Source: Rhynchopus sp. YZ270_cl-10
Lineage: Eukaryota
DNA length: 64,000 nt
Assembly (NCBI GenBank): GCA_964035575.1
Contig: OZ037840.1
Location: forward strand, 248,001-312,000
Direction: 5' to 3'
Part shown: piece after piece, positions 1,436 to 50,410 of the stretch
Layout of the letters: every line of letters starts with the position of its first letter
Numbering within the stretch: position 1 is the stretch's first letter
Notes under the pieces: generated by a model
The model's database searches: none
What the model saw: only the letters and a program-made list of their open reading frames with translations
Told to the model about the DNA's origin: nothing
Translations under genes and position numbers: made by a program

Positions 1436-4400
1436 GGGAAAACAAACTTTCGGTCTGCGTGCGCGTCCTGCGTGCCTGGGTTTTTTTGAGATTTTCAAAA
1501 AAAAAGTTTTTTTCAAAAGGGGAATAGTCAGATTTACCCTACCCTATTTTGAAAAAGTTCAGACTTGCCCCAAATAAGTTCAGACTTGCCCTAAAAACAC
1601 TTTTAGGGCAAGTCTGAACTTTTTTGGGGCAATTCTGAACTTATTTTTAGGGCAAACACTTTTTTTAGGGCAAGTCTGAACTTTTTTGGGGCAAGTCTGA
1701 ACTTATTTTTAGGGCAAGTTGGGAGCTCTTGGGTCACAGAGCCCGGCGGTCGTCGTTTTTGCGTTTCAGAACTTTCTGCTGTGTCGATTCTTGTGATTCT
1801 GCTATTCGCGACTCGAGTCCTGGTAGTGAAATGAGCAACCTATGGTATGCAGCTTTTCGCGCCGCACTGCACTACACCGCGAACCGAGACCCGTACAGAA
1901 AACAGAAAACAGAAGAAAGACGTACCCAAACGCGACTCCTCCTGGTACACGACGTAGTAGTAACAAAAAAAATACCGATTAAGTACAAAGCCTTCGGGCG
2001 ACATTGTGTACATCCTACCTCTGTAGGTGATCGATACAACCAAAGAAAGCATAGTGGTGCACCCTCGGGTGTCTACACTACTGCAACAACGATTTCTATA
2101 GCTACAGTTTCCCCACCTCTACCTTTAACTTTTTAAACGAGGACTGTAACCTCCAAAACCTGATTCTTTTCTTGCTAATAGTTGCTCTGAAAGGTTGCTA
2201 CCTTCCGTAGTACAAAAGGCTTCGGCCAGACCCTAATTCTCTGGGATTACTCGGCGATTGTCGACACAACAAAAAATTCCAGAGGACTTTGTTGGTCGCC
2301 TTACTCATTTGGATCACAACGGTATGTATATGCTACTCATTACAATGTTAGCCACTTCTATTGCCAGACACCGGGGCAAATAGTAAGTGCAAGAAAACTG
2401 CTTTTTGGAAACCAGGAAAACATGATGGACACTCCACTCCACGTGCGGACATGTTTGGCACTTCTGCATGCGTGCAGTATCCAAATGTGTCCCCGTGGGA
2501 CCAAAGTGATAAAGATGTGTCCACTGTGTACAGGGAAAAAACTTTGCGCTCCCCCGGACAGTGCACAATTCAACACCCCTTGTGGGTGGTCTTGTTGCCT
2601 TTTGGAACAACAACGATTTTTCCCACGTTGTTGCATTTTGGCCAGGCATGCTCTTGAAAGCATGACAATTTGATTGCGTATGGACAAAGCAAATAACCAA
2701 GTATGAATTCTGAGTTGAAGTGTGAGAGATGTTGTGGGAAGGGGAGTTCGCTCCTTTCAACGATGACCTCGTTGTTCTTCATAGGCTCGTCTTAACCGAC
2801 CACATAAATAAAATTGTGCCGGCCTCGAAGGAATTCTAAGCACGCCCTCGTGGTAGCTAAACACTGACTCTCTCTCAATTCAACAAAGAAGGAATACTTG
2901 GTAATTTGTGGAGCACCCGTGCATGAAAATTGTAAAACTTTGCGCCCCACGTTGCCCCAGAACACGGCTTCCTTGTAACCGGTTCTGGCCCAACGTGGAC
3001 TGCCTGCTCACCCTTTCCGGGTGGCTGGTGGTTTCTGGCATCATTTTTGGGCTCCGGCTCAGTTAGGCATTTTAGGGCAATATAACAAGTCATACCATGT
3101 GGGGCCCCAAGAGTGCCCCAGCCAAAGTGGCCTGACTTGTTGCCCTAAAATAAGTTCAGACTTACCCTAAAATAAGTTCAGACTTACCCGAAAATAAGTT
3201 CAGACTTGCCCTAAAAAAGTTTTTAGGGCAAGTCTGAACTTATTTTCGGGCAAGTCTGAACTTTTTCATAGGGCAAGTCTGAACTTTTTCAAAATAGGGT
3301 AGGGTAAATCTGACTATTCCCCTTTTCAAAAAAAAGTTTTTTCTGTGGAAAGGCGAATACCGACCCCCCTGCTACCCCCGTCTCCCCCAAAAAAATTTTC
3401 CCATGGAGAGCAATCGGCTCGCGCAATCAAAAGAAGGCAGAGAAAAGGGAAAAGAAAAAAAGAAAAAAGTTGGGTACCGTGCGCCTGCGGCGCTACCTGT
3501 TCCCTACACTCCTTTATTTTTAAACATGATGTACTTATTTATGTACAGTGTTCATTTTCTTTTGAGTATGACTCCACATCCCTTCTCCCTCACGGATAAA
3601 GATCAATTAGGATACCATGGGGCACACCTGCAAGTCTGCCGCAGAGAATAATGAGCTGCTGAACCGTCTCCACCCTCGCTGTGTGAGGGCACCCCCTCCG
3701 AGGACATAACCGTCCTGGTTTTTTTATTTTTACTCTTCTCTGTGGTCACTGAACCCCCACCGCACTACAATACCATAGCTTTCTTCAGTACATTAGTGTT
3801 TCCAGTAAAACACTACAATTTCATGCCAAGTTGGGTTTTCAGACTGAAAATGACCCTTGTTGAGTACGGGTTCATACTTTGTGATAATTTGAGTCACTGA
3901 AATTTTGTCCATTTTTCCGTATATCCCCCACCATAAGCCGGGATTGGTTCGGAAATGCGGTATCCTTACTAAAACCAGAGGAATCTCGTAGTTCCTAGTA
4001 AGGGTACTTCAGTGTATTTTTGTACACACATGTGACCCCACCGTGGAGAGCAATCGGCTCGTGCAATCAAAAGAAAGCAGAAAAAAGGGGGAAAGAAGAA
4101 AAGGAAAAAGTTGGGTACCGTGCGCCTGCGGCGCTACCTGTTCCCAGTCAAAAACACCATAATTTGATCTGAAGTTGGGTTTTCAGTCCTGAAAATGACC
4201 CTTGCTCACGAGTATGGGTTCATATTTTGTAAAAAAATAAGTCACTAAAATTGTTTCCATGTTTCCGTTTTTCCCCCACCACAGAACGGGATTGGCTCGG
4301 AAATGCCACAAAACACTGTTTTCACCCCCTTATACACAGCTGTCTGAGGTGCGTTTTTTTGGTCCCAAAACACGATTTTTCAGATTTTTCCCCCAAAAGT

Positions 4401-6271: not shown

Positions 6272-6736
6272 TAGAGAATGCGCATCATGCGCATGATGCG
6301 CATAATGCGCATAATGCGCATAATTGTGTTATGCGCATGTTTTTTGTGTGTTTTTTTTATGTCATGCGCATACAAAAAAACAAAAGTGGATGCGCATATT
6401 TTTTTGTGTTTTTCTTCATGCGCATGTTTTTTTGTGTTTTTTTGGTATGCGCATAACACATATGTGTGATGCGCATACCAAAAAAACACAAAAAAACACA
6501 AAAAAACACAAAAAAACATGCGCATTTTAGAAAAACACACAAAAAAATATGCGCATCAAAATGCGCATAATGCGCATGACGCGCAAAATTTTGTGTGTTT
6601 TTCTAAATGCGCATATTTTTTTGCTGTTTTTTTTAATGCGCAAAATTTTGTGTTTTTCTCTTAGAAAAAACACAAAAAAATATGCACACGACAATTTGTG
6701 TTTTTTACACAATTTGCGCATGATGCGCATTCTGTA
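6272..6736. mobile_element. MITE built from tgcgca(t) palindromic repeats
   Basis: TIR tagagaatgcgcatcatgcgca / tgcgcatgatgcgcattctgta; interior of (atgcgcata)n and A/T-tract inverted repeats; TSD not clean. Confidence 0.65.
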
Positions 6737-8304: not shown

Positions 8305-9010
8305 TCAATCGGAATGGCGAACATTCTTTTTGGCTTGTGTATGAGAGAAGTACATGAACGAGAGTCCCATGAGCAGCAACGTTGCTGAAAGCACCGGACG
8401 CGCGAAGAGCCAAGCCACCGCAATGATGATCAACGTCAACGCCACCGAGAGCAGGAACACCGCCGTCCCAGTCACCCAACGCAGCACCGTGCCAAAGAAC
8501 GGCACGATGTCACCAACAACGTTAACAGGCTCGACACAGATCGACATCCCAATGTACAGCACAAAGAACCCAACCACCCTCAACACCCACAACAACAGGG
8601 TGTTCTGGCTGTGCCGTGCGGCAATCAAACTGGCTGCAGAGTGCGAACCCTTTCCTACCAAAGGCAACACCGAGTTGGGCGCTCCGGTGACCGTACCGTC
8701 TGACTGCATGATACCGACCACACTGATCTGTTCGTTGCTTGGGAAGTAATCGACGGAGACACGCAGATCACCTACCTGCGGCGAATGCGGCTGGGCTCCG
8801 AGGAAGACGTGGTTGCCCTGTACGTGAACATTTGCGCCAATGTTCTTCACATTGTCTGCGTTAAGAAAGAGCCTGCTCGTCGGCAGCGCTGACACCACCT
8901 CACTCGAAGCACGCAGCTCTCCAATCGCAATGTTATTTGCAGTCGTCCGCTGCATGGACAACGACAGAGCAGGGGAAGGGTTCTGATGGCCGTGGGGGAT
9001 CTTGAAGGAG
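8305..9010 (-). CDS. TMEM43: TMEM43/LUMA (DUF1625) family protein, exon 3 of 3
   Basis: Acceptor cacag at 9011-9015. Encodes (N)SFKIPHGHQNPSP..., PQVGDLRVS and four C-terminal TM helices (W.LRVVGFF..YIG; AWLFARP). Model join(11599-11970, 9365-9465, 8305-9010) = 1179 nt, 392 aa, with consistent phases. Confidence 0.88.
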
Positions 9011-9364
9011 CTGTGAGTGGGGGTGGTGGGGGAGGTGGTGTGGACATAATCTGATCAAGGTCACTTTTTCATGCAGTATTAGGGGGTTTGAAAACGTTTG
9101 TTTCAACTTTGTTGTGTTTTTGTTTTTGTTTTTGCTACTCTGTTTGTTTTGTATTGTATTTTCATTGTAGTACTTTGTAAGTTGAGAGGTAGGTGCACTT
9201 CTTTGTTAAGATAGCAGTATTAGGGGGATAAATGAGTGTGTTGCAGTCCAATGAGAGGATTCAGAAGGAAGCAGAATTAGTTTAAAATTGTTTGATTTTT
9301 AGAGGGGGGGGTGCAGCAAAGCGGCTAGGGGGGTATAAAAAGTGTGCGGGTCGTGGCGACATAC

Positions 9365-9465
9365 TTGGAGTTCTTGTACGACGACGACCAGGAGGTGTGG
9401 TAGTCGTAGTTCTTCACTGTGGTGGAGCTGCCTCCTTGCTTCTGCGTCTGGCTGCGGACAGTTTC
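9365..9465 (-). CDS. TMEM43: TMEM43 family protein, exon 2
   Basis: tccag|ETVRSQTQKQGGSSTTVKNYDYHTSWSSSYKNS|gtatgt; continues the EMFQWV-E motif; not in the ORF track. Confidence 0.85.
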
Positions 9466-9496
9466 CTGGATGTGTTGTGTGTTTTTATTTTTTATC

Positions 9497-11160
9497 TTAT
9501 TTATATCACATGTGAAAATGACTTTTTGCTGGGATCCTTCACAAACGGGGCGTGAAATAAAGTGAGCTTTTTTTCACGCTTGCTCTTAGTAATTTCGCTG
9601 GAGGCGTGAAAAAAAGTTTCACTGGCGTGAAAAAAAGTTTCACTGTTTTCTGTCAGTCACAAAACCACACACTCCACCCTACAAATCATGCCAAGGACCA
9701 AGAAGAAGGAGGCTATGGAGGATCTGTATGAGACCGAGCTTCTGGCAGGGTTGAAGTCAAGCACTGCATACAAAACGGAGTGGAATAAGTTTTTACAACA
9801 CAATAAAATCACGGGGCGGAAGCAGCCAAGAGAAGAACATGTGGTCTCTTACTTGACACACCTGCGCGAAGAACGCAGCTACAAAGCCAGCTCATTATGG
9901 TCGTGCTACTCTAAGCTCAACTTTATGTTCAAGACGGAGTTCGACTTTTCACTAAAGGAGTACCACCGCATCGGGCTGTTGCTGAAGACCTGGGGAAGTG
10001 ACGAATCGACGAAGAAGAGCAAGACGTTTTCGAAGGGAGAAGTGGAGATGTTTCTCAAGATGAGCGAGTTGAGCGACTGCTACTGGTGTGTCCGCAAGGC
10101 TTACGTCGCGGTGTGTTTTCTGTCGGGAATGAGATGCACAGAAGCACTGATGCTTGAGATGACAAATTATCAGGAATCACCAGTGGGATACCTCTTCACG
10201 TACCAGCACTGTGCTAAGGTGAAAAAGGCCGACATGGAGCGTGGGAGGTTTGTGGTACCAAGAGACAGCATCTACTTTTGTGTGGTGGAGGAGTACCTGA
10301 ACCGGCGCTCACCAGTTTCACAGGAGGGTCGCTTCTTCATCACTGGAACTAAGACGACAGCTGACAGAACTACTACTGGGACCTTTCGTGTGCAACCTCT
10401 TGGCATCAACAAAATGTACGGCATACCTGCAGAAGTCGCGAGGGTGCTTGCGCTGGACGGTTCGTACACTGGGCACAGCTTCCGCAGGTCTTCTGCGACT
10501 CAAGCCGCTGAGGCAGGAGCATCTATTGTACAGATGCAACGCCACTATGGGTGGGTCAGTCAGGCAATGCCACAAAGGTACACCGAAGTCACACAGGCCG
10601 GTCAAGTTGCGATGTCACAGCTGTTGACACAGAACAACAGTCCCCCAACTCAGACGCCACAAGAAGTCAAGATTAACATCAATGTGCAACAGAACAAACC
10701 ATGATCATGAGTGCAAAAAAAAAACCCCCCTTCTGTGATGCTCTATACACCTGCCCCCCCCCTACAGGCGAGATGAGTGGTGACATCTTGTAATTAGTAC
10801 CAGTCATAGGAGGCATATATCAAAAAAAGTAACCCCTTCCCTGCTTTTGATTGATGTTCACATGTTCCCCTACTCTCATTCACACTCTCACTTACAGGTA
10901 CCCACATTTTGTTCATAAAATCACTCTATTTTACGTCTCGTTTGTGAAGGATCCCAGCAAAAATATCATTTTCACTTGTAAAACAAAACTACGTATTAGT
11001 TTGAAATAAAGTGCGTTTTTTCACTTCCACGTATTTTGTCTCACTCGTGCTCTATTATTGCCCTCGCCTGCGGCTCGGGCAATAAACTCTCACTCGTGAG
11101 CCAAAATTACGTGGGCGTGAAAAAAAGTGCACTTTATTTCACGCTAATAATTAGTTATTT
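9497..11160 (+). mobile_element. Crypton-like tyrosine-recombinase DNA transposon in TMEM43 intron 1
   Basis: YR ORF flanked by inverted repeats at 9512-9565 and 10921-10975; long hairpin at 10995-11148; candidate terminal direct repeat ttattt (9497-9502 and 11155-11160; AT-rich, so the ends are uncertain); no RT or RNase H. Confidence 0.8.
9688..10704 (+). CDS. Tyrosine recombinase (phage integrase family), intact, 338 aa
   Basis: Catalytic R (SGMRCTE), K (AKVKK), HxxR (GHSFRRSSAT), H/W (RHYGW) and Y (PQRYTE); N-terminal core-binding-like region (YKASSLWSCYSKL); intronless; antisense to the host gene. Confidence 0.95.
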   Translation: MPRTKKKEAMEDLYETELLAGLKSSTAYKTEWNKFLQHNKITGRKQPREEHVVSYLTHLREERSYKASSLWSCYSKLNFMFKTEFDFSLKEYHRIGLLLKTWGSDESTKKSKTFSKGEVEMFLKMSELSDCYWCVRKAYVAVCFLSGMRCTEALMLEMTNYQESPVGYLFTYQHCAKVKKADMERGRFVVPRDSIYFCVVEEYLNRRSPVSQEGRFFITGTKTTADRTTTGTFRVQPLGINKMYGIPAEVARVLALDGSYTGHSFRRSSATQAAEAGASIVQMQRHYGWVSQAMPQRYTEVTQAGQVAMSQLLTQNNSPPTQTPQEVKININVQQNKP

Positions 11161-11222
11161 TTCAACGGAGTGTCCTATTTTTTTTTTCAGATTTGAGTCC
11201 TCATTTTAAATCGAGTACTTTG

Positions 11223-11332
11223 TCCACCTGATTTTCACCCCGCGGATAGGTCCGGATAGGCCCGTATAGGGCCGGATATGGCTGGATAGGGCCAAAAGCC
11301 GATTTTTTTTTGGGAGGGTAAAATCAGGTGGA
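11223..11332. mobile_element. 110-bp MITE in TMEM43 intron 1
   Basis: TIR tccacctgatttt(c)accc / gggtaaaatcaggtgga; flanking tttg duplication; internal (ccggatagg)-like tandem; the same terminus recurs near 15739. Confidence 0.65.
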
Positions 11333-11598
11333 TTTGTACAACCATGTAAAACTAGAAAAAAGTGTCACCTTGCCGTTCCCTCACCTCCCCTTCTTTGTAG
11401 TTGTTTGATGTTGACGCTTCCACACAAACAAAATAAAGTTGATAGTGCAAACCGCCTCTGGCACGCAGGCACTGACACTCCTCGGTCTATCATCCCGCCC
11501 CCCTCCCCGGGGGGCTGCATATGAGAGCGGCTGACAGATCTCAACAAACATTGCCTTACGCCTCTCTCCTTCAAAACCCTTCTTTACGGCTAACATAC

Positions 11599-11970
11599 CA
11601 CCCATTGGAACATCTCGGTGCTTCGTGACATCTTGACAGCTTCGACTTGCACCGTGAACGGCCCGACTGTATCAGTAATCATCTCCCCAGTGATGACACC
11701 TGTGAAGTGGATCGGGTTGGAGGCGAACCCAGCGGCGATCTTCAGGGGCGGGTCGTGCCCGATCTCCTTCAGGTTCGAGGAGAGGTAGTCAAGCTCCTTG
11801 GCCACCTCGACGGCGTTCTGCTCGTTGAAGAAGAGTACCATGGGGGCAAGAACGGCAAGCATCACCCAGCCAAAGCAGGCCCCACACAGCGACCCTGCAA
11901 CGCGCGAGCCATACGAGTTGTGCGTCACCTCCACATAGCTGTGCGGGCCTGTCTGGAATCCGTTGCGCAT
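11599..11970 (-). CDS. TMEM43: TMEM43 family protein, exon 1
   Basis: MRNGFQTGPHSYVEVTHNSYGSRVAGSLCG...LFFNEQNAV...MSRSTEMFQWV|gtatgt; a pyrimidine tract plus cag lies ~20 nt upstream of the ATG (likely trans-splice acceptor). Confidence 0.85.
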
Positions 11971-12186
11971 TTGTGTATGTGAGTTGTCTGGTGAGAAAGG
12001 GAGGGTGGAAGAGAGAGAGAGAGATGTGGGCTGATGTGCATGGCGTAGTCTCTTGTCATGTGTCATGTGATAAGTGAAATGAAAAAGGTAGTTTTCTATT
12101 TGTCGTTGGTTGTTTGTTGGATCGCATCCGCCCTCGTCCGTACTTCAGGAAAAAATAAACGGTTATTTTGGGTGGTTTAAAATCCC

Positions 12187-12345
12187 TGGGGTGATCAGGG
12201 GTAGTATTCTGCCAAAAAATTCGCAAAACCCGGAATGCGAATCGCAAAAATTCGCAAAAATTCGCACTGCGAATTTTTCGCATTTTTTCCCCGATTTTTC
12301 CTGGTTTGCGAATTTCGTAGCAGAATACTACCCCTGATCACCCCA
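12187..12345. mobile_element. MITE, TGG..CCA ends, 5-bp TSD
   Basis: 26-bp TIR tggggtgatcaggggtagtattctgc; TSD atccc at 12182-12186 and 12346-12350; internal aattcgca repeats. Confidence 0.8.
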
Positions 12346-12549
12346 ATCCCGGTGGTGAAAGTGAGTCTTTTGTGAAGTTTGTTTTTGCAAACCCCAAAAA
12401 AACCCGAAAACTGAAGTACGATGGAGAGGTGGAGCACAAAAGGGGGAAAGGGAAACGGTGAGACATGACACCGAAGAACGTCTCACTGCCACACATGTGG
12501 CATACGTGTACAATCAGACTTGTTTGGCATGCACACCGTCTCCACTAGG

Positions 12550-12590
12550 CATACCTAGAAAGCGAATATGATATTCGCTTTCTAGGTATG
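12550..12590. mobile_element. 41-bp perfect hairpin insertion with 6-bp TSD
   Basis: catacctagaaagcgaatat-g-atattcgctttctaggtatg flanked by actagg on both sides; absent from the paralogous 3' flank near 16717. Confidence 0.9.
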
Positions 12591-12737
12591 ACTAGGGCAG
12601 TTGTGTGCAAAGAAACACCCCAAAAAAAAAACCTGCGATGTTTAAAGTTCTCTTTTTGATACTTAGTTTGTTGCATCGCAGGTACGTGGCAGCGTTCTGT
12701 CGAAGCATCACGCTGCGTAGTTGTACCTTTGCCTTAA

Positions 12738-14582
12738 TCACTCTAATTTCTCTAACACAGCCTTGCTGCATTTCTTCTTTCCGTACAATGTAGGAGAACA
12801 TTTACAAAGGAAATACTCCTCTACCTCCACGACATTACTCAAGGGAGAGAGATCAAGTTCTGTCAGCGAAGAACAGCTCTGCAGGAACTGCTCCTTGATC
12901 CCTCTCACAGTGAGCAAGCCAGAGAGATTAAGTTCTTCCAAAGCTGTACAATCCTTGAGAAAGTAGGAACGAATCGCAGTTACCCTCACAAAGGAAGAGA
13001 GATCAAGTTGTGTCAGAGAAGTGCACCCCATAAGGAATGACTTCTCAATCGCTGTGACACTGCTCAATGGAGTGAGGTCGATTTCTTTCAAAGATCTGCA
13101 GTACTGCAGGAAGTGAGGCCCAACTGAAGTGACACCACTAAAGGGAGAAAGATCAAGTTGTGTCAGAGAAGTGCACTCGTACAGGAACTGATCCTGAATC
13201 ACTGTGACCCTGCTCAAGGGAGTGAGATCAAGTTCTTTCAAGGCTTTGCAGTCCCGAAGGAAGTGAGTCCCAACTGAAGTGACACTGGTCAAACCAGAGA
13301 TGTCAAGTACTTCCAAGCTGGCGCAATTCTGCAGAAACCCGTTCCCAATCGAAGCAATGCCAGACACAGCGCTGAGATCAAGACTCACGAAAGTTGCTCC
13401 GAAGAAGAATCTCATTGGAATCGCAGTCGCAACACCTGCCTGAAGAAGCAAACAAGCCACCTTCGCATCCGTCACTTCCGCCAACCTCGCTGCTGTCAGG
13501 TTTTTCTCACCCAATGCATCAAGTGCTGCAATGGCTACCTGCTCCTTCGTCTGCTTCTGCACAATCCTGTCAGCACTCAGCTGTGTCATGTCCTCTCCTT
13601 CTCCCATCACCTCACCCCTGAAACACATCCCAAAGCTGTTTCCAGGCAACTTTGTTGCAGACGCCACCTTCCGACGCAAGCCACACAGCGTGTCATCCAC
13701 ACTCACCTCAATCAAGTGTTCCACTCCATCCACACCCTCCACAAGCACAGGCACGACAAGTCCCAACCTCTGGCCAAGAGCGTCGTGCACGTCCGACACA
13801 GGCAGCGTCAGGGAAAACTCTGCGTGTGGGTATGCAGCACCCACAAGGCGGTGGCGGTCTCCGCACGCTGCCATGCTCTCGATGCTCCGCACAACGGCCT
13901 GCGACTCTGTTGCCGCACGCAGCGCCTGGTCGTCCCCAAGCAGACACACCTGCTCGCACTCGTCAATCATGTGTTCTGCCTTCGCAACAAACGTCTTCAG
14001 CGCACACACCTGCCCTGCAGCACTCAGTGCCTGTGTGAGGAAGCTCCGTGCCAACGCCTCCTCACACACGACGTTGCTACGCCACACATCCTCACCCATC
14101 AACAGGTGTCCGACGTGTGTCTGCAGGAGAAGGTCTTTGTACCTGGCCTCTGGGGGTTCGGCTGCCTCAAGCACACAGCACTCCTCATCTGCAGCAGCCC
14201 GCTGCTTCGTCAGGTCTGCCGCGTGTGAGCGCAGGATGCAGCGCTGGCGTGCAACGTACTCAGAGATTTCGATTGTGTTGTGTCCCGCATGTTCGCGCTT
14301 CTCACAGCGGACACAGATCATTGCGTCTCCACACGCAGGGTCTTCACAGACAAGGTGCAGCTTGAACTCTGGGTGCAGTGCACAGTTCGGCGATGCCCCG
14401 TACCAAGTCACAGAAGCAAGATGCATCTCACGGTCGCGTACCCTCGGGTGTAAAGCTTCGAAGCAGGCAGGATTGTCGCAGAAGAACAGTTCTTTACAAT
14501 GTCCACACTGCAGCTGTGCAGGTGCCGAACAGCTCTCACACAAAGGCATCTGTGGTGCGGTGGGCTCCATGTCACAGACCAT
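12738..14582 (-). CDS. Tandem B-box + coiled-coil + ubiquitin-like + BspA-type LRR protein
   Basis: B-box1 CESC..CGHC..CDNPAC..H; B-box2 CALH...VCEDPAC..ICVRC...HAGH; UBL (IEVSVDDTLCGLRRKVA); ~9 24-aa LRRs (LxxLDLSPLSxVTxIxxxFLxxC). ATG at 14582 follows a pyrimidine tract and gaag. Confidence 0.88.
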   Translation of the reverse strand: MVCDMEPTAPQMPLCESCSAPAQLQCGHCKELFFCDNPACFEALHPRVRDREMHLASVTWYGASPNCALHPEFKLHLVCEDPACGDAMICVRCEKREHAGHNTIEISEYVARQRCILRSHAADLTKQRAAADEECCVLEAAEPPEARYKDLLLQTHVGHLLMGEDVWRSNVVCEEALARSFLTQALSAAGQVCALKTFVAKAEHMIDECEQVCLLGDDQALRAATESQAVVRSIESMAACGDRHRLVGAAYPHAEFSLTLPVSDVHDALGQRLGLVVPVLVEGVDGVEHLIEVSVDDTLCGLRRKVASATKLPGNSFGMCFRGEVMGEGEDMTQLSADRIVQKQTKEQVAIAALDALGEKNLTAARLAEVTDAKVACLLLQAGVATAIPMRFFFGATFVSLDLSAVSGIASIGNGFLQNCASLEVLDISGLTSVTSVGTHFLRDCKALKELDLTPLSRVTVIQDQFLYECTSLTQLDLSPFSGVTSVGPHFLQYCRSLKEIDLTPLSSVTAIEKSFLMGCTSLTQLDLSSFVRVTAIRSYFLKDCTALEELNLSGLLTVRGIKEQFLQSCSSLTELDLSPLSNVVEVEEYFLCKCSPTLYGKKKCSKAVLEKLE

Positions 14583-16859: not shown

Positions 16860-17873
16860 TCACTCTAATTTCTCTAACACAGCCTTGCTGCACTTCTTCT
16901 TTCCGTACAATGTGGGAGAACATTTACAAAGGAAACGTGTCCCTACCTCCAAGACATTACTCAAGGGAGAGAGATCAAGTTCTGTCAGCGAAGAACAGTT
17001 GTACAGGAACTGATCCTTAATCTCTCTCACATTGAGCAAGCCAGAGAGATTAAGTTCTTCCAAAGCTGTACAATCCCTGATAAAGTAGGTATGAATCATA
17101 GTTACTCTCACAAAGGAAGAGAGATCAAGTTGTTTCAGGGAAGTACACTTGTACAGGAATGACATTTCAATCGCTGTGACACTGCTCAATAGAGTGAGAT
17201 CGATTTCTTTCAAAGATGTGCAGAACTGCAGGAAGTGAGGCCCAACTGAAGTGACACCACTAAAGGGAGAAAGATCAAGTTGTGTCAGAGAAGTGCACTC
17301 GTACAGGAACTGATCCTGAATCACTGTGACCCCGCTCAAGGGAGTGAGATCAACTTCTTTCAAGGCTTTGCAGCCCTTAAGGAAGTGATGCCCAACTGAA
17401 GTGACACTGGTCAAACCAGAGATGTCAAGTACTTCCAAGCTGGCGCAATTCTGCAGAAACCCGTTCCCAATCGAAACAATGCCAGACACAGCGCTGAGAT
17501 CAAGACTCACGAAAGTTGCTCCTGATAAGAATCTCCTTGGAATCGCAGTCGCAACACCTGCCTGAAGAAGCAAACAAGCCACCTTCGCATCCGTCACTTC
17601 CGCCAACCTCGCTGCTGTCAAGTTTTTCTCACCCAATGCATGAAGAGCTGCAATGGCTATGTACCGCTCCGTCTTCGTCAAGACGACTGTGTCCCCGGCA
17701 CTCAGTTCTGTGATGTCCTCCCCTTCCCCCTTCCCTCCGAAGCCCATATGAAAGCTGTCTTCGCACAACCCCGTTGCAGACGCCACCTTCTGCCGCATCG
17801 TCTCCGTTGTGTCATCCTCACCCACCTCAATCACGTAGTCCGTTTCCCCAAACCCCTGGATCGTCAGTTCCAT
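16860..17873 (-). CDS. Ubiquitin-like + BspA-type LRR protein, tandem paralogue of 12738-14582
   Basis: 337-aa ORF; UBL N-terminus (YVIEVGEDDTTETMRQKVA); LRR region and 3' flank (~16615-17660) highly similar to ~12440-13560. Confidence 0.9.
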   Translation of the reverse strand: MELTIQGFGETDYVIEVGEDDTTETMRQKVASATGLCEDSFHMGFGGKGEGEDITELSAGDTVVLTKTERYIAIAALHALGEKNLTAARLAEVTDAKVACLLLQAGVATAIPRRFLSGATFVSLDLSAVSGIVSIGNGFLQNCASLEVLDISGLTSVTSVGHHFLKGCKALKEVDLTPLSGVTVIQDQFLYECTSLTQLDLSPFSGVTSVGPHFLQFCTSLKEIDLTLLSSVTAIEMSFLYKCTSLKQLDLSSFVRVTMIHTYFIRDCTALEELNLSGLLNVREIKDQFLYNCSSLTELDLSPLSNVLEVGTRFLCKCSPTLYGKKKCSKAVLEKLE

Positions 17874-25203: not shown

Positions 25204-26393
25204 TATACATAGCGCTCTAATTAGAGTATTAGGGTATAATTAGAGTCTGGGATTTTGGGCCAAGTCAGTTAGAGTCCAGTTAGAGTATAATTAGAGTCGC
25301 TTTTCTTCAATTAGACTATAATTAGAGTGTAGTTAGAGCATAATTAGACTCTAACTACACTCTAATTATAGTCTAATTAGAGTAAAACAACAGGCTTCTT
25401 GTAGGTGCAAACGCCGTAAGGAACCGGTTCCCCTAAGGTTCCTCTGTAGGACCCAGGTGCCCAGGTACCCACATAGCTGAAAATAAGACTTGGGGACCGA
25501 GTTCTCAGCCGGACTGGGACACGATATGTGAAGGCGCTGTGGTCCGCCTGAAAGCGGGTCGGGGACCCGGTCGCGGGAGGGTGGGGGCCAGTCCTACTGT
25601 ACCTAGTACCCAGTACCGGGACTCGGCTTATTCTCAGCTATGGGTACCCAGGTACTCAGACCCGCGCAGTGGCACATGCCCTCAAGTGTGAGTGACCCGG
25701 GCATTATTGAAGGTGTTTGGGGTGCAAAATTTTCTACAAATGTTGATGCGCGGGTACAGAAGTGTTGTCTTGTTCTTTCATCTGTAGGAATGTAAATATC
25801 AATCGAATTTAACTACCACTAAGGGGTCGAAGGGGTAATCCCAGTATCAACGGCTGTGTTGACGGGAAATCTATAGCGAGCATACGTTCATTTCAGCCGA
25901 AGAAATACTACTTATGAACCCAGGAGAGATCCAAGCCTCGCGTTGAACAACTACCCGCGATCGACAATACCAAAGAGAATTCATAACAAAACAACACTGC
26001 CACATACACACTAAATAGCCATGCTTCAAGTGCATGCCCCTGGGCCAAAATTCCTGTGCTAAAAAGGCAACAAGACCACCCACAAGGAGTGTGAATTGTG
26101 CACTGGTTTTCTGGGGGAACAAACAATATTTTCTTGTGTCTGGTTCTCTGCAAGCAGAGAACAGACTTTCTGGATTACAAAGTCGAATTTCTTGCACTAG
26201 CTATGCCTGGGTTGATGGCTATAGCATTGATTGATGTGCCCCTCTTTATTGACCCTCTTATAGGACTCTAATTAGACTCTAATTAGAGTCCAGTTAGAGT
26301 ATTAGAGTTCAGTTAGAGTTTTAAAGACTCTAATTATACTCGAACTGCCGACTCTAATTATCTAGTTAGAGTCTAATTGGAGCGCTATGTATA
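25204..26393. mobile_element. TIR element TATACATAG.., rich in taattagag repeats, copy 1
   Basis: TIR tatacatagcgctc(t/c)aattaga; probable attgta duplication once the 23492-25201 insert is removed; homologue at 34842-36144. Confidence 0.8.
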
Positions 26394-34841: not shown

Positions 34842-36144
34842 TATACATAGCGCTCTAATTAGAGTATTAGGGTATAATTAGAGTCTGGGATTTTGGGCCA
34901 AGTCAGTTAGAGTCCAGTTAGAGTATAATTAGAGTCGCTTTTCTTCAATTAGACTATAATTAGAGTGCAGTTAGAGCATAATTAGACTCTAACTACACTC
35001 TAATTATAGTCTAATTAGAGTAAAACAACAGGCTTCTTGTAGGTGCAAACGCCGTAAGGAACCGGTTCCCCTAAGGTTCCTCTGTAGGACCCAGGTGCCC
35101 AGATACCCACATAGCTGAAAATAAGACTTGGGGAACCGAGTTCTCAGCCGGACTGGGACACAAGGCGCTGTGGTCCGCCTGAAAGCGGGTCGGGGACCCG
35201 GTCGCGGGAGGGTGGGGGCCTAGTCCTACTCCTACTGTACCTAGTACCCAGTACCGGGACTCGGGACCCGGCTTATTCTCAGCTATGGGTACCCAGGTAC
35301 TCAGACCCGCGCAGTGGCACATGCCCTCAAGTGTGAGTGCCCCATACATTAGGGAATGCGATGCAAAAACTCTATGTGCACCTTCGGTGCAACGCCGCAG
35401 ACAGGCCAAGCAGCGTTGGACTCAGAGGAATGCCTGCTGTGCAGGTATCAATGAGAACCAACTCCCAGCAACAAGGGGCGCCTTTTGGCGGGCGTTATTG
35501 AAGGTGTTTGGGGTGCAAAGTTTTCTACAAATGTTGATGCGCGGGTACAGAAGTGGTGTCTTGTTCTTTCATCTCTAGGAATGTAAATGTCAATCGAATT
35601 TAACTACCACAAAGGGGTCGAAGGGGTAATCCCAGTATCAAAGGCTGTGTTGACGGGAAATCTATAGCGAGCATACGTTCATTTCAGCCGAAGAAATACT
35701 ACTTATTCTAAAATATACCAAAGAGAATTCATAACAAAACAACACTGCCCCATACACACTAAATAGCCATGCTTCAAGTGCATGCCCCTGGGCCAAAATT
35801 CCTGTGCTAAAAAGGCAACAAGACCATCCACAAGGAGTGTGAATTGTGCACTGGTTTTCTGGGGGAACAAACAATATTTTCTTGTGTCTGGTTCTCTGCA
35901 AGCAGAGAACAGGCTCTCTGGATTACAAAGTCGAATTTCTTGCACTAGCTATGCCCTCTGGGTTGATGGCTATAGCATTGATTGATGTGCCCCTCTTTAT
36001 TGACCCTCTTATAGGACTCTAATTAGACTCTAATTAGAGTCCAGTTAGAGTATTAGAGTTCAGTTAGAGTTTTAAAGACTCTAATTATACTCGAACTGCC
36101 GACTCTAATTATCTAGTTAGAGTCTAATTGGAGCGCTATGTATA
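34842..36144. mobile_element. TIR element TATACATAG.., copy 2
   Basis: Same TIRs and interior as 25204-26393; flanking duplication aatcata at 34835-34841 and 36145-36151. Confidence 0.85.
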
Positions 36145-36291
36145 AATCATAACATTATACCAACTGATCTGTCCTTACTATTCTACTACTATGTCTTTTT
36201 TTTTTTCGTTGACCGCAGCAGAAGCGTAAAGACAGATCTACCGTTGGTTTGAATAATATATTCTGTTTAGTTTCCAATAACACTTCGTGTA

Positions 36292-36406
36292 CACGACGGT
36301 GAAGTAAATAACTTGATTTGTGGTTTTACTTGTGGTGTCACGGTTGGTTTACAACGGTGAAACCACAAGTAAAACCACAAGTCAAGTTATTTACTTCACC
36401 GTCGTG
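36292..36406. mobile_element. 115-bp fold-back MITE, TA TSD
   Basis: ~45-bp TIR cacgacggtgaagtaaataacttga.ttgtggttttacttgtggt; ta on both sides. Confidence 0.85.
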
Positions 36407-37342
36407 TATGCAAAAAAAAGGGGGAGGGGGGGAAAAAAACGTACCTAGTCCCTAAGCCAATGAAGGGGGACGATACTCTACTGCAGGGGGTTTTGAATGC
36501 AACCTCCCTGCAGTAGTGTTCTCTTGGCATCCTGCCATGCACTCTCTTTTCTCCTCTCCATTTTTGTTTTTTTGAAAACTTTTTTTAACCATTCCTTTTT
36601 TAGGAACGGAACTATGTACGGTCCTGGAAGCTCCAAGAAAATGGGAGTCGGCGGGCTTAATAGGAAGTTGCCTTTCTAAACGTGCACAAAAAAAAAAACT
36701 TGGTTGTATTAGTGTAGCCACCCTAGAGTGTGCTCCACTATTTTTTTTTTTTTTCGTTTGCTTCGCTCATGAAGGTGGGAGGGGAAAGGGTGGGCGCTGG
36801 TTTGTGATGAAAGGAACAAATACCATTTGACAACGTTGGGAGGGTTTTTGCTCTCTGATGTATTAAAAAAAAATTGACTGGTGAAATACAAAGCCCTCTT
36901 GGGACAGTGTACCTAAAAAAAAATAGGTTGGGGGAGGATGGAGAACAGGAAGAAAAAACGACTTGACATGACACGATCACCCCAAACTACACCTTTCCTA
37001 CAGACAGAACTGAACAGAACAAAAGAGTGAGAGAGAGAAATTTGGTAAAAAAAATTGGCAAAAAGAACATCCGAAGCTTTGCTGTGTTATGGAGATGCTG
37101 CTTTTTTTCAACAAAGGGAAGCCTCTTTTTTACTTTCAACGGATGTCATCCGTCCGATTTTGAGAAACCCCCCCCCCTCCCCCCCCGGAGAAGATTGTAA
37201 ATTTGGCAACCTGAAGTTTTCGGCTTTTGGACAGACGTAAAAAAATTCGAAAACCAGCGGAAGTGGATTTCCGAGCTCCCCGCTTTTCACCACAAAAAAA
37301 ATCGACCACTTTAGTGGAGTAGAAGTTAATTTAAAGTGGCTC

Positions 37343-44716: not shown

Positions 44717-45065
44717 CTGTGGGGTGGTGGTTGTGGTTGTAGTTTTATTTCCCAACCCAACAATGATAAAAACGTGAAAATAAAAGCAAAATCAGAATAA
44801 ATTTGATGTTTTTATGAAGCACTCAACGAAGTGTGCCGGCTCTCTGGAGTCACGGAGCCACCAACACTCCCCCAGTCTTTTTTCCTACGCTTCCAGGAAA
44901 ACTCGCGTATCCGACTAGGACCAGAACGTTTTTGACTTGAAATACAAAATCCCTCCAGTGTTACTGACTCATGACAACCGAAGAAGGCGCTCTTTCATTG
45001 CCAGACGTATTGCGCTACTCATACAAAAGAAAAAAGAGCAAAAAAACCCCATGAAGGGCACATAC

Positions 45066-46781
45066 CAGAGCATCAGCATTCCACCTCTGCTCAGGCGCTG
45101 CTGCTGGCGTCAGTGCTTCCATGCCTCCCAGATCCCCTGGGAAGAAGTCGTTCTTTGCGTTGGTTTTGTCCTTCGCCTCTGGCGCACCACTAGCAGCAGC
45201 AGCAGCACCAACACCTGCAGCAGCCACCCCACCTCCGAGCAGCGGGTTCATCCCTTCCATGTCCCCGGGGCCGAAGGAGCCACCGCCACCACCCAACGCA
45301 GCAGGAGGTGCGCCACCGAGCAGTGGTTCCTGGTCAGGCGTCGCCTGCTCCTTCAGGAGAGGCTCCATCCCGTCCTTCGACCCGGGGCCGAAGGTGTTCC
45401 CGTTGCCTCCGTTCGCGCTGCCGCCAAAGTTTACCCCAGATTTGCCTTCGTTGATCTTGTGTGCTTCCATATCCGTGAGGTCGCCGCCACCCCATTCACC
45501 ACTGGGGGATTTCTTTGGTGGCGGGGCCTTCTTCTTCTTGAGGAGCAGGTAGAGGGCGAGCGCCAGGCAGCAGAGGATGAGGAGGATGAGGAGCAGGACG
45601 AGCCAGCCGAGGCACATCCCGCCTATCTCGAAGAGGAGGCAGTCGTTGCCGCCGCTGTTGCTGGTGGGGTCGGTTGCGCCTTGTGTTTCGCGGAGGCAGT
45701 CTGGGGGCTCGTAGCCGGGGTTGCAGAAGCAGCCGCCGGTGTTCCAGTCGCAGATGCCGTTGCTGGAGCAGTTGAGGGCGGCTTCGCAGTAGACCGTGCA
45801 GGAGACGCTGTGGACGCCGGGGGGGAACCAGTTGGGGAGGCATTCGCTGCAGTTGCTGCCGACGTGGTTTTGCTTGCAGTCGCAGCCGCCGTCCTCGCGG
45901 CAGGTGCCGCGGTTGTTGCAGTCCTTTGCTTGATCGCAGGTTGTGGAGATGCTGCAGTTGTCGCCTATCCAGTTTGTGTTGCAGTCGCATAGTCCGGTGC
46001 CCCAGGCGCATTTGCCGTTGTCGCTGCAGGTGGTGGTGGGCTCGCAGTAGATGGTGCATGCGTCGGTGCCGGTGCCAGGGGGGTAGAGGTTGGGCTCGCA
46101 TTCTGCGCAGTGCTTTCCGGTGAAGCCTGCGTTGCATTGGCAGATGCCGGTGGGGGAGCAGGTGCCTCGGTTGGAGCAGAGCTCGTCTGTGCATTCAATG
46201 GAGCAGTCGTCGTTGTACCAGTTGGGCTGGCAGTCGCAGACGGGGAGGGTCGAGTCCAGGTTGCATTCACCGTGGGAGCTGCAGTTGGCGCTGCGTTCGC
46301 AGAAGAGGTCGCAGCTAGGGGGGTTCGGCTGGGAGGAGTAGTAGTTCACCGCGCATTCGGTGCAGTTGTCGCCGCCAAACCCAGGCGTGGTGCACACACA
46401 GTAGCCCTGGTCGTTGCAGTTGCCTCTAGCGTTGCAGGTCGCATCGTCGTCGCAGTATTGGTTGCAGAAGCCCTCAGGGAAGTACTGCGGTGAGCATTTG
46501 TCGCATGTGGTTCCAGTGAAGTAGCCGTCCTGGAGGTTCTGGTAGCATTCGCAGCCCATATCCCCGCAGGTGCCGTGGTGGTTGCAGAAGGAGGGGGAGC
46601 AGATGAGGTTGCAGACACCGTCGGGGTAGAAGGTGGTTGCGCATTGGCCGCACTTAATGCCCGAGAAGGTGCCGCTGCCGCCTTTGGACATCTCGTCGCA
46701 GTCGCATTCGAAGTTGTTGCATTCACCGTGCCCAGAGCAGTAGGAGTCACGGCTGCAGGATTCGTTGCAGCCAGTGGTGGT
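45066..46781 (-). CDS. Large EGF receptor gene, exon 2: laminin-type EGF repeats, TM helix and start of the cytoplasmic tail
   Basis: accag|TTTGCNESCSRDSYCSGHG...; repeated C..HG.C...C.C...G..C..C units; TM WLVLLILLILCCLALALYLLL followed by KKKK; donor gtatgt at 45065. Confidence 0.88.
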
Positions 46782-48150: not shown

Positions 48151-48292
48151 AGAAACATCATTTGTTCAAAACAAAAAGGTGTTATCAGATGACCCTAAGC
48201 CGTGCTTACGTTATCCAATGAATTTATTCAAAAAGGCAAAAAGTGAAGTTGGTAAATGCAAACCACCTAGGGTGTGGCACTAAGAAACATAC

Positions 48293-50410
48293 CAAATCAC
48301 AGGCAGGATATTTGTAGAACGGGGCCATGCATTGGTCACATCTTGGTCCATCGAAATGCGGGTCACATTTGCACGTTCCGTCCATATTGCATACACCGTT
48401 CCCATTGCAGGTGTCCTCCGCCTTGCAGTAGATGCAGTCCGGGTATTTGAAGTGGTCAGCAGCACAGTCGTCGCAGGCTGCTCCCGTGAAGTTCGCGTCG
48501 CAGTTGCATTCACCAACACGGATGTCGGGGAGGCAGTCACCATGTGTCGAGCAGTTCAGGTCTCGTGTGCAGAACACATTGCACACCTTCTCTGGGAACA
48601 GACACACCCCGCTTGCCGCCGCTGCTCCAGGGAAATTCGCTTGGGTTAAAGGGCATTCAGCGCATTCGGTGCAGTTAGGGTTGACGGAAATATCCTTGAG
48701 TTGCGGTTCACATAGCTCGCATCTGGCCCCGGTGAAGCCGTCGAAGCAGGCGCAGGAGAGCGCGTTGCTGCATACACAGTTGTTGTCCAGCTCGCATTCC
48801 GCTGGAATGATGATGCTAACGTACATCGAGGCAACATTCCCAAAAATGTCGATCGCGAGAACCGACATCTTGTAGATCGTCCTTTCGAGGTATTTCATTT
48901 CAATCCGATCCGGGTGGTTTGCCACGATATGCGACCCCTTAAATTTAAATCTCCCTTCCGCCCCTCCATCCGTAAGCTGCCATTGCTTGATACGAACACA
49001 GCTTCCATTTGCGAAGAGCTCTCCAAAAGAGGCTTCCTTTGGAATGGCACGATACCAATCATGCTCGTGGTCTTCGGGCTCCCAATTCAAATCAAAACAA
49101 CCGTCCACAGGGCAAGCCAGCGAGGCGGGTTCTAACGCAAAGGTGATGTTCTGTCTGCTTGACCACAACGGAGGGGTGGAGGTATCGGACACGATGTACT
49201 CACATTCTTCGACATTGATTTCACCACTGTTCGACCGCGTAATCAGCTGCGCCTCTGGGGTGAATTCAAAGGACCCATCTGCCTGAATGACCAAAGTCGA
49301 TCCCTCCTTGCAAATATGGGTAGTCCCTGTACTCTGCGTCTGCGGATCCTGTCCAAACGTAGGGGCAACCTGAATGTTCATATTCTTGAGAAGCGGCGAC
49401 CAATCGTTTGCTAAGGCGCCTTCGAAGGCCGCAACGGTCATTTTCAGAAACTGATCTCTTCCTGGAGAGTTCCGTTCCACGCCGTAGAAATCCTCTGCAG
49501 TTACCGGTGCAGTTTGCCCCGGCTGAAGCTTAAAGAGACGTACATTCCCATAAATAACCCCATGCTGCGAGAGGTTGTACCAAGCAATCCTCCCTTTCCT
49601 CCAACCCTTCTTTGTGTTGGTCGCTGGGGGCACCGGAGTCACTGGTGAATAGCATTTTGCGTCGTTAACATTTGTTTGCGTATTTGCCTCGCATTTTACA
49701 ACAAGCTGCCATTGCTCAAAATTGAAAAGCTCCACCCCCGCGACAGCAATCGTAATACGCTCCTCAGAAAACAGAATCTGGAATGGATACTCAATCTTCT
49801 CCTCCCACCCATCGGAGTCGACCTGGTCAATCAGAAGGCACCCTACGTTCTCTCGGTTGGTCTGCGCGTTGTTTCCATTTGAGGTACGATACCAAAAACA
49901 GTCTCCAATCGTTCCTCCACTATGCGTAAAGTCCTGCACCGCGTGGGAGCCGTTGAGTTTCTGCAAAGTGTACTGTGAGTGAACGGGGTTCGGACCGGAG
50001 GCGCCCTTGCCTCCCCAAGAGAAGAGGAGACCGTCATACGTCCACTGATCGCTTGGGGTAGGTCCGTGGAAGCCGACTGCCATACCCAGAAAGTCATCAT
50101 CCGCCTTGACCGGGGATCCGTCGGAGTTTACCTGCGGTCTGACTGAAACGGTTCCGGTGATGACAACGTCAATGATGTCTTGATCCTCCGACATATAAAA
50201 CCCAGGTCCCGGTGTGTTCACATACTGCTTGACAGTTCTTCCTGCATCCTGAACCTCCCATCTCCCTTTCAGCCCAGCCTGCAGCCATGACGACATATCC
50301 AACCACGACTCTGACGCAGCCGAAGGACAATACGAAGTGTAATTAGCGGCGTTCGCAAACACGCTATCAATACACAGCACCGCAGCAAACCATAGGGTTA
50401 GCTGCCGCAT
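48293..50410 (-). CDS. Large EGF receptor gene, exon 1: signal peptide, thrombospondin-C-like lectin domain, Ig/cadherin-like domains, EGF repeats
   Basis: Signal MRQLTLWFAAVLCIDSVFA; WEVQDAGRTVKQYVN..DDDFLGMAVGF (TSP-C-like); TAEDFY..GALANDW..IQADGSFEFTP (Big_9/VCBS-like); EGF repeats; donor gtatgt at 48292. Confidence 0.88.

Follow-up and report, generated by a model that had tools for sequence, protein, structure and literature searches.

The DNA analysed here, referred to below at its full length as the window, comprises 64,000 nucleotides of Rhynchopus sp. YZ270_cl-10 (contig OZ037840.1, positions 248,001 to 312,000). It carries an intact open reading frame (ORF) for a tyrosine recombinase of 338 amino acids (9688-10704, plus strand), identified through Pfam, family alignment, structure modelling and fold search. 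This gene lies in a mobile element of 1,663 bp (9500-11162, plus strand), whose limits correspond to a repeat unit common to several copies, as seen from contig ends and differing flanks. It is the only long forward ORF within these limits, the four other ORFs of at least 60 amino acids being all located inside it. Two 30-bp sites in inverted orientation, L (9550-9579) and R (11115-11144), surround the gene. In an earlier note on this DNA they had been interpreted as the recognition sites of a candidate self-inverting switch.

The statement that these sites flank a real and apparently intact tyrosine recombinase gene was borne out at the levels of domain content, catalytic residues and fold. 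The protein matched family Phage_integrase (PF00589, E 3.3e-9) and, weakly, an N-terminal SAM-like domain (PF13495, E 4e-4); DUF3504 was not detected in the Pfam search. Residues R149, E152, K177, H263, R266, W289 and Y298 were invariant or nearly so across a family alignment of 41 sequences. The AlphaFold model reached a predicted local distance difference test (pLDDT) score of 90.3, and its best matches in the Protein Data Bank were Cre/Tre-lox complexes, over both domains (Foldseek E 5e-11, template modelling (TM) score 0.72-0.76). The integron integrase structure 2a3v appeared at rank 38 of the same search (TM 0.53). With a threshold of E <=0.001, a full HMMER scan of 1.84 billion representatives yielded 1,770 relatives. 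The best one was 40% identical, and the majority were 300-450 amino acids long and stand-alone. A word-indexed protein search returned only the protein itself. The sole named relative was a firefly hypothetical protein. Atlas neighbours fell into clusters from arthropods and cnidarians, an ALOG domain being present in one of these clusters, and one relative carried a BTB-domain fusion. At the C-terminus (around residues 325-338 of the window protein), most family members had a variable linker and then a conserved tail, short and made of hydrophobic residues alternating with N (e.g. KININVQQ and ITINVQAGATLNV); model confidence was low in this part.

Copies of the element were examined through Logan contigs of eight public runs, parts of the stretch being uncovered in runs X9 and X10. 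Contigs spanned exactly 9500-11162 in X4 and X5, 9489-11162 in X7, and 9500-10709 plus 10715-11162 in X1. In five runs, contigs ended at 9500 and/or 11162 and were followed there by unlike, T-rich flanks. For instance, an X9 contig entered the element from an unlike flank (...GTGTGTTTTTTT|9500), an X4 contig left it into 11162|TTGAGATTTT..., and six X3 contigs displayed a T-run directly after 11162. Since contigs stopped at these two positions and ran into differing flanks, and since the identical 338-residue protein was encountered on 37 contigs, the 1,663-bp unit was considered a multi-copy element. A one-residue variant of the protein occurred on four contigs, and shortened forms exist as well. 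Both termini, where a direct repeat of 4-6 bp constant between copies is expected in a Crypton, are T-rich (the left one starts with TTTATAT and the right one finishes with TATTTTT), and one copy of this sequence occurs in an internal block at 10981-10987 (see below). No target site duplication was found in the flanks of the window copy. Contigs of X3, X8 and X10 diverged at 9721-9724 and rejoined the element at 10703, which suggests variants in which nearly the whole ORF (9725-10702) was deleted or replaced, i.e. candidate non-autonomous derivatives. The X3 joint from 9724 to 10703 is weak evidence of such a deletion derivative, its shorter side counting only 21 letters.

The element is inserted in antisense into a spliceosomal intron (9466-11598, minus strand) of a TMEM43-like gene. 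This location was deduced from X1 contig joints and from the downstream TMEM43-like ORF (8305-8955, minus strand; Pfam TMEM43, E 1.9e-33). One X1 contig joined 9464 to 11598, with ends CT..AC (cut +1) corresponding to GT..AG on the minus strand; it also joined 9010 to 9365. Pieces of this gene were thus recognized at 8305-9010, 9365-9465 and 11599-12066 (minus strand), with at least two GT-AG introns. The best database relative of its product was only 34% identical, which points to a poorly sampled eukaryotic host.

Site L is composed of two inverted GCGTGAAAWAAAG half-sites and site R is a near-perfect 30-bp palindrome, also made of two half-sites. As the earlier note had reported, they form an inverted pair (30-nt arms, 28/30 or 93% complementary), the reverse complement of R being equal to L except for two central bases (AG vs CA). 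They are the only inverted repeats between the ends of the element, and they start 50 and 18 bp inside termini 9500 and 11162, respectively, so that they are not themselves the ends. The organization of 11-8-11 that had been attributed to both sites fits L as one option, but it is arbitrary since their geometry is ambiguous (15-0-15, 13-4-13 or 11-8-11): R can be read as a 15+15 palindrome with zero spacer, and L as 13-nt arms separated by 4 nt. Their central sequences, AGTGAGCT and AGTGCACT, differ at two positions in either orientation.

The same motif was found at other places of the element. Upstream of the gene, two tandem 21-bp units GCGTGAAAAAAAGTTTCACTG (9604-9624 and 9625-9645, plus strand), each consisting of a half-site followed by TTTCAC, are located 43-84 bp before the ATG; the tandem half-sites signalled previously were thus recovered, although the second unit starts at 9625 and not at 9626. 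A degenerate third site (10996-11025), of which 11002-11021 is 90% like 9553-9572, was likewise retrieved and turned out to be the mirror image of R within a palindrome of 182 bp (10981-11162). The half-site previously noticed in the right inverted repeat is also present (10921-10936) and belongs to a 43-nt inverted repeat of 91% (9523-9565 / 10921-10963). With at most one mismatch, half-site GCGTGAAAWAAAGT had six matches in the 64-kb window, all of them within 9550-11144, against an expectation of 0.12; six were reached in 0/100 shuffles. Likewise, GTGAAA/TTTCAC occurred 11 times in the 646 non-coding bp of the element, compared to 0.91 per kb in the window (about 18-fold enrichment). Among relatives, loci L002, L006, L022 and L033 each displayed their own, different short repeat, both in the palindrome and near the far end.

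The sites had been described as recombinase binding or crossover sites. Their motif being confined to the non-coding ends, they are the best candidates for binding, and L and R are likely recombinase-binding sites as judged from sequence. The crossover part of the proposal was not supported: 9500 and 11162 are the limits of the repeat unit, and the break in the internal complementary region (see below) corresponds to these same two ends, so that the mobile unit does not have its crossover points at L and R.

The right part of the element displayed a particular organization. The imperfect palindrome mentioned above starts 277 bp after the stop codon, is 74.6% self-complementary and is centred at about 11070. 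It overlaps an internal complementary region (10921-11037) composed of two blocks that abut or overlap at 10981-10987. The first block, 10921-10987, pairs with the left terminal block (9500-9565, plus strand), which is its inverted copy (blastn 85% over 67 nt), and the second one, 10981-11037, pairs with the right terminal block (11104-11162, plus strand), its inverted copy at 80-86%. The break between the blocks coincides with the termini found independently from contigs. End-to-end joining would extend this structure into an imperfect palindrome of about 300 bp, with its centre at 11070. In this joined form, the sites would be arranged in mirror symmetry about 11070, R being opposite the third site, and 10921-10936 opposite the left half of L. 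Folded alone as DNA, the palindrome had a minimum free energy (MFE) of -48.9 kcal/mol (z -11.8), and a simulated end-to-end junction gave a single continuous stem of 40+62+12 bp (MFE -103 kcal/mol, z -20). The apex of the palindrome (11063-11077, minus strand) reads CGAGC-CGCAG-GCGAG, that is, a cGCAg triloop (11068-11072) between tandem G.A mismatches. This strict motif occurred once in the 64-kb window. No Rfam family was found in the window.

The same layout was searched in 77 metagenome-contig loci encoding relatives of the recombinase, obtained through a pattern scan with an alignment of seven sequences. A palindrome of at least 80 bp was present near the gene in 33 of the 77 loci, which is not discriminating given 13 other such palindromes in the window. 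A split inverted repeat, with one arm abutting the palindrome and the other one beyond the gene, was recorded in 10 of the 77 loci and in the window on the basis of a BLAST criterion. With a finer test, in which the reverse complement of the inner flank had to beat all 40 shuffles, it was observed in 13 of the 33 palindrome-bearing loci and in the window. A c-GNA-g triloop occupied the apex of 17 out of 34 palindromes (13/30 after collapsing five near-identical copies), as compared to 0/13 for the other window palindromes and to a 5-mer background of 0.0054 per position. The strict apex motif was found in five of the 77 loci; in four of them (L015, L018, L028 and L071) it was located at the palindrome apex, and in the fifth (L057) it was at position 170, where no palindrome of at least 80 bp was present. 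This motif, with its tandem G.A mismatches, is common to relatives sharing 24-30% protein identity. The split-palindrome layout with a cGNAg apex thus recurs in distant recombinase-only relatives. No reverse transcriptase was found in the window element, in eight long relatives or in 38 flanking ORFs of longer loci.

A relationship was also observed between the strand of the loop and the position of the palindrome. The GNA loop was on the ORF sense strand where the palindrome was upstream (12 cases) and on the antisense strand where it was downstream (L023, L028, L074 and the window), L065 being an exception. On the GNA strand, the terminus-carrying arm was 5' of the loop in eight independent cases (L015, L040, L055, the L063 family, L071, L023, L074 and the window), again with L065 as exception. 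The ORF pointed toward the module made of palindrome and terminus in L023, L028, L074 and the window, and away from it in L015, L055, L063, L071 and others. Palindromes of L063 and L065 gave 100 and 101 of 140 in direct and reverse-complement comparison, respectively, which is uninformative. Complementarity between the palindrome arms stayed at about 75%, including in families with copies that are 99% identical to each other. One such family comprised five copies (L063 and L066-L069; 99% identical) of a 1,541-bp unit starting at the palindrome edge, and in L068 the right end of this unit was joined to its left end, head to tail. Compared to L063 (503-2043), the copy in L062 (2885-4285) was devoid of exactly the 139-bp palindrome and kept plain terminal inverted repeats of 30 bp, which could reflect hairpin loss or an alternative product.

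Our results are best explained by a multi-copy, recombinase-only (Crypton-type) transposon of 1,663 bp, with L and R as its subterminal inverted repeats. These likely serve as recombinase-binding sites to pair and join the ends, and not as parts of a self-inverting switch (probability of about 0.6). In this scheme, dimers of the recombinase would bind to L, to R and its mirror copy and to both tandem units, and would bring the element ends together. The element would then leave as a circle joined across its T-rich termini and re-insert at T-rich targets without target site duplication. The tandem units upstream of the ATG may also let the recombinase control its own promoter.

Several observations weigh against this explanation. 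There is no correctly oriented half-site at the termini, beside the presumed crossover, and it is hard to see how a two-domain, Cre-like enzyme, which has no separate arm-binding domain, could cut at distances of 50 and 18 bp from L and R. Neither a circle junction (11162 joined to 9500) nor an empty site was found in the contigs of the eight runs. Copies were near-identical throughout, the listed differences being 9911 C>G and homopolymer indels, so that the invariance of the sites among copies carries no weight. With 13 other palindromes of at least 80 bp in the window, the palindrome alone is not special; only the apex motif and the split repeat are. Finally, the conserved cGNAg apex has no role in a purely double-stranded pathway, and its conservation is thus hard to explain by such a pathway; according to PMC3201870, DNA hairpins with d(GNA) loops closed by a C-G pair are unusually stable.

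According to the self-inverting switch initially proposed, an exchange between L and R would flip 9580-11114 and change the orientation of the gene with respect to a host transcript or to the element ends. The two sites are indeed inverted copies flanking the gene, and the varying orientation of the ORF relative to the palindrome-terminus module among relatives implies that the gene segment was flipped at least on an evolutionary time scale. However, both layouts can also be explained without inversion, through the opening of a symmetric palindrome in either arm. Moreover, the two central differences between L and R, together with the palindromic centre of R, argue against L x R exchange, which would leave mismatches. 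No strand-changing joint was seen in the contigs of the eight runs, and whole-element contigs (X4, X5, X7 and the X1 pair) were colinear with the window. Both orientations of the segment were sought in these contigs and only that of the window was encountered, but contigs may miss rare variants or isomers; these negatives are thus weak and a rare inversion is possible. On balance, the switch appears very improbable. A non-autonomous DIRS-type retroelement, which would have kept its inverted terminal repeats, internal complementary region and recombinase while relying on a reverse transcriptase provided in trans, is slightly more improbable still. Inverted terminal repeats combined with an internal complementary region do match the definition of DIRS elements as given in parts of PMC8969392 and PMC7192593. 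Yet the searches for reverse transcriptase mentioned above, including those in the neighbouring ORFs, were all negative, and the 1,770 relatives are for the most part stand-alone proteins. Furthermore, in most relatives the palindrome is upstream of the ORF and the loop is carried by the sense strand, an arrangement at variance with first-strand cDNA.

Two other explanations are more probable than these, although both are less probable than the Crypton-type transposon outlined above. In the first, the main rival, which we regard as possible but unlikely, the element would move through single-stranded DNA. On the strand carrying cGNAg (here the minus strand), the 5' terminal arm would fold onto the internal complementary region and the 3' end would anneal alongside, the internal region thereby holding both termini in line like a splint, a role proposed for it in DIRS-1. 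The substrate of the recombinase would then be sites restored within the folded stem, in which R and the third site are paired. Recombination of folded single-strand sites is known for the integron integrase on attC and for XerCD on the CTX phage hairpin. This model would account for the frequency of the c-GNA-g apex in relatives and its absence from control palindromes, for the stability of such loops as DNA, for the maintenance of the strict motif between distant proteins, for the position of the opened arm 5' of the loop (L065 excepted) and for arms that stay partly complementary in families of near-identical copies. In addition, the internal complementary region of DIRS-1 is essential and its intermediates are single-stranded, as far as described in parts of PMC7192593. 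On the other hand, a recombinase-only element has no known route to single-stranded copies; the GNA strand is the ORF sense strand in 12/17 cases and cannot, in these, be first-strand cDNA of the recombinase mRNA; and the motif could also be selected through cruciform extrusion from duplex DNA or by a host protein reading the apex. The second explanation, which seems improbable, is purely cis-regulatory: the tandem units and L would be promoter or operator elements, the palindrome a terminator or a trigger of small-RNA silencing, and recombination would take place only at the T-rich termini. The position of the tandem units shortly before the ATG and that of the palindrome after the stop codon are in line with this idea, as is the fact that the breakpoints are the termini and not L or R. 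It is at odds with the presence of the same motif at both ends and its mirroring in the palindrome, and with the situation in relatives, where the palindrome and the far end bear motifs specific to each relative, independently of ORF orientation. Besides, the GNA loop at the apex is a stable loop of the DNA type, not of the RNA type.

Other repeats were recorded around the element and elsewhere in the window. On the right side of the element, 11223-11332 displayed perfect inverted ends of 13 nt (11223-11235 / 11320-11332) around five tandem copies of the 10-bp sequence CGGATAGGNC (11243-11292). A piece of it (11224-11260) was found in other contexts in X4 and X7, and the unit is possibly a miniature foldback element. 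Further on, 11400-11503 (core about 11436-11485) corresponded to a very high-copy short repeat, with a summed contig depth of 52,570 in X1 vs 44 for the neighbouring exon, and many contigs broke at 11436 and 11480-11485. In the upstream host intron, a repeated piece was located at 9112-9215 (core 9170-9215); its depth was elevated in X1 and X8, and contigs diverged after 9215. The thirteen other palindromes of the window (80-167 bp) lie in 1552-1645, 3149-3289, 6390-6688, 12187-12345, 12530-12609, 25301-25386, 34939-35024, 36290-36408, 58939-59074 and 60391-60496. Palindromes 25301-25386 and 34939-35024 have the same apex, and so do 1552-1645 and 3149-3289, which suggests families of foldback elements or miniature inverted-repeat transposable elements (MITEs). 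Neither the GNA apex nor the recombinase half-site was present in any of the thirteen. The window also contained long intron-free ORFs, all on the minus strand (12738-14582, 16860-17873, 45015-46691 and 48224-50410). The first two code for proteins with BspA-type leucine-rich repeats, fused in the first one to a B-box zinc finger, and the other two for EGF/teneurin-like repeat proteins.

Among known systems, the element is best read as a Crypton-type transposon with DIRS-like ends. With Cryptons (especially the animal-type groups CryptonA and CryptonI; Kojima and Jurka 2011, PMC3212892) it shares a small size, a eukaryotic host and a tyrosine recombinase as sole gene, the lack of both reverse transcriptase and target site duplication, multiple copies with constant ends at different places and, judging from the weak X3 joint (9724-10703), likely deletion derivatives. 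Its relatives come from arthropods and cnidarians, and the BTB-fused one resembles the Crypton-derived KCTD1. Cryptons have no terminal inverted repeats, and animal Cryptons no terminal repeats of any kind, according to the portions of PMC3212892, PMC8969392 and PMC13465315 that deal with them. In contrast, the window element displays subterminal inverted sites, an internal block with complementarity to either end and a palindrome (about 180 bp) whose apex is conserved. It further differs by its recombinase, in which Pfam DUF3504 was not detected. The absence of terminal inverted repeats is a descriptive trait of the published Crypton families, not a mechanistic requirement. In full-text searches of the literature, neither an internal complementary region nor a capped palindrome was found to be described for any Crypton, although Repbase entries or the supplements of PMC3212892 could hold such a description.

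The closest parallel for the ends is found in DIRS1-type elements. The internal complementary region of DIRS-1 comprises 33 nt complementary to the left end and 55 nt complementary to the right end (excerpts of PMC7192593 and PMC8969392). In both cases this region lies near the 3' side and is complementary to the start and then to the end of the element (about 67+57 nt here), and both share inverted repeats near the two ends, the lack of target site duplication and a tyrosine recombinase. Unlike DIRS1-type elements, the window element has no gag, reverse transcriptase, RNase H or methyltransferase; it is shorter (1.66 kb vs about 4.8 kb), its inverted repeats are 30-bp sites instead of about 300 bp, and in its relatives the module can be upstream or downstream of the gene. 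A split block complementary to the ends has so far been regarded as a hallmark of DIRS retrotransposons; its occurrence on recombinase-only elements ties Cryptons and DIRS structurally. It also raises the question whether the function of such a block lies in reverse transcription, which is the usual assumption, or with the recombinase.

Similarities with Cre/loxP concern the two-domain fold, the catalytic R-K-H-R-W-Y residues and sites made of inverted half-sites of 11-15 bp. Sequence identity to Cre is however only 15-17%, the element carries many half-sites of ambiguous geometry in place of one site, and the breakpoints of the mobile unit lie outside these sites. In recombinase-driven invertible switches, such as Flp/FRT of the yeast 2-micron plasmid (the paradigm for inversion) and fim-type switches, both orientations are expected in a population and the crossover sequence is expected to be identical in the two sites, whereas no inverted isomer was seen here in contigs and L and R differ at two central bases. 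As a compact and, from its sequence, apparently active eukaryotic Cre-like recombinase with candidate sites and defined ends, this system makes binding, excision and integration directly testable.

Lastly, the palindrome recalls folded substrates of bacterial recombinases. Integron attC and the CTX phage attP(+) hairpin are imperfect palindromes of 100-300 nt with recombinase half-sites in both arms and conserved imperfections. The putative hairpin of the window element shares with them an imperfect palindrome of this size range, half-sites in both arms and a conserved imperfection, but differs in having a eukaryotic host. Its conserved DNA-type apex triloop gives a hint, of a kind rarely seen at the sequence level, that single-stranded folding may occur in a eukaryotic transposon. 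A bolder and quite doubtful proposal is that eukaryotic recombinase-only transposons of a large and so far undescribed group use a folded single-stranded hairpin for their movement, the cGNAg-capped split palindrome being both splint and recombinase substrate. If true, the internal complementary region of DIRS would be an old feature of the recombinase substrate that predates the acquisition of reverse transcriptase, and this group would be the eukaryotic counterpart of integron attC and CTX-phage recombination.

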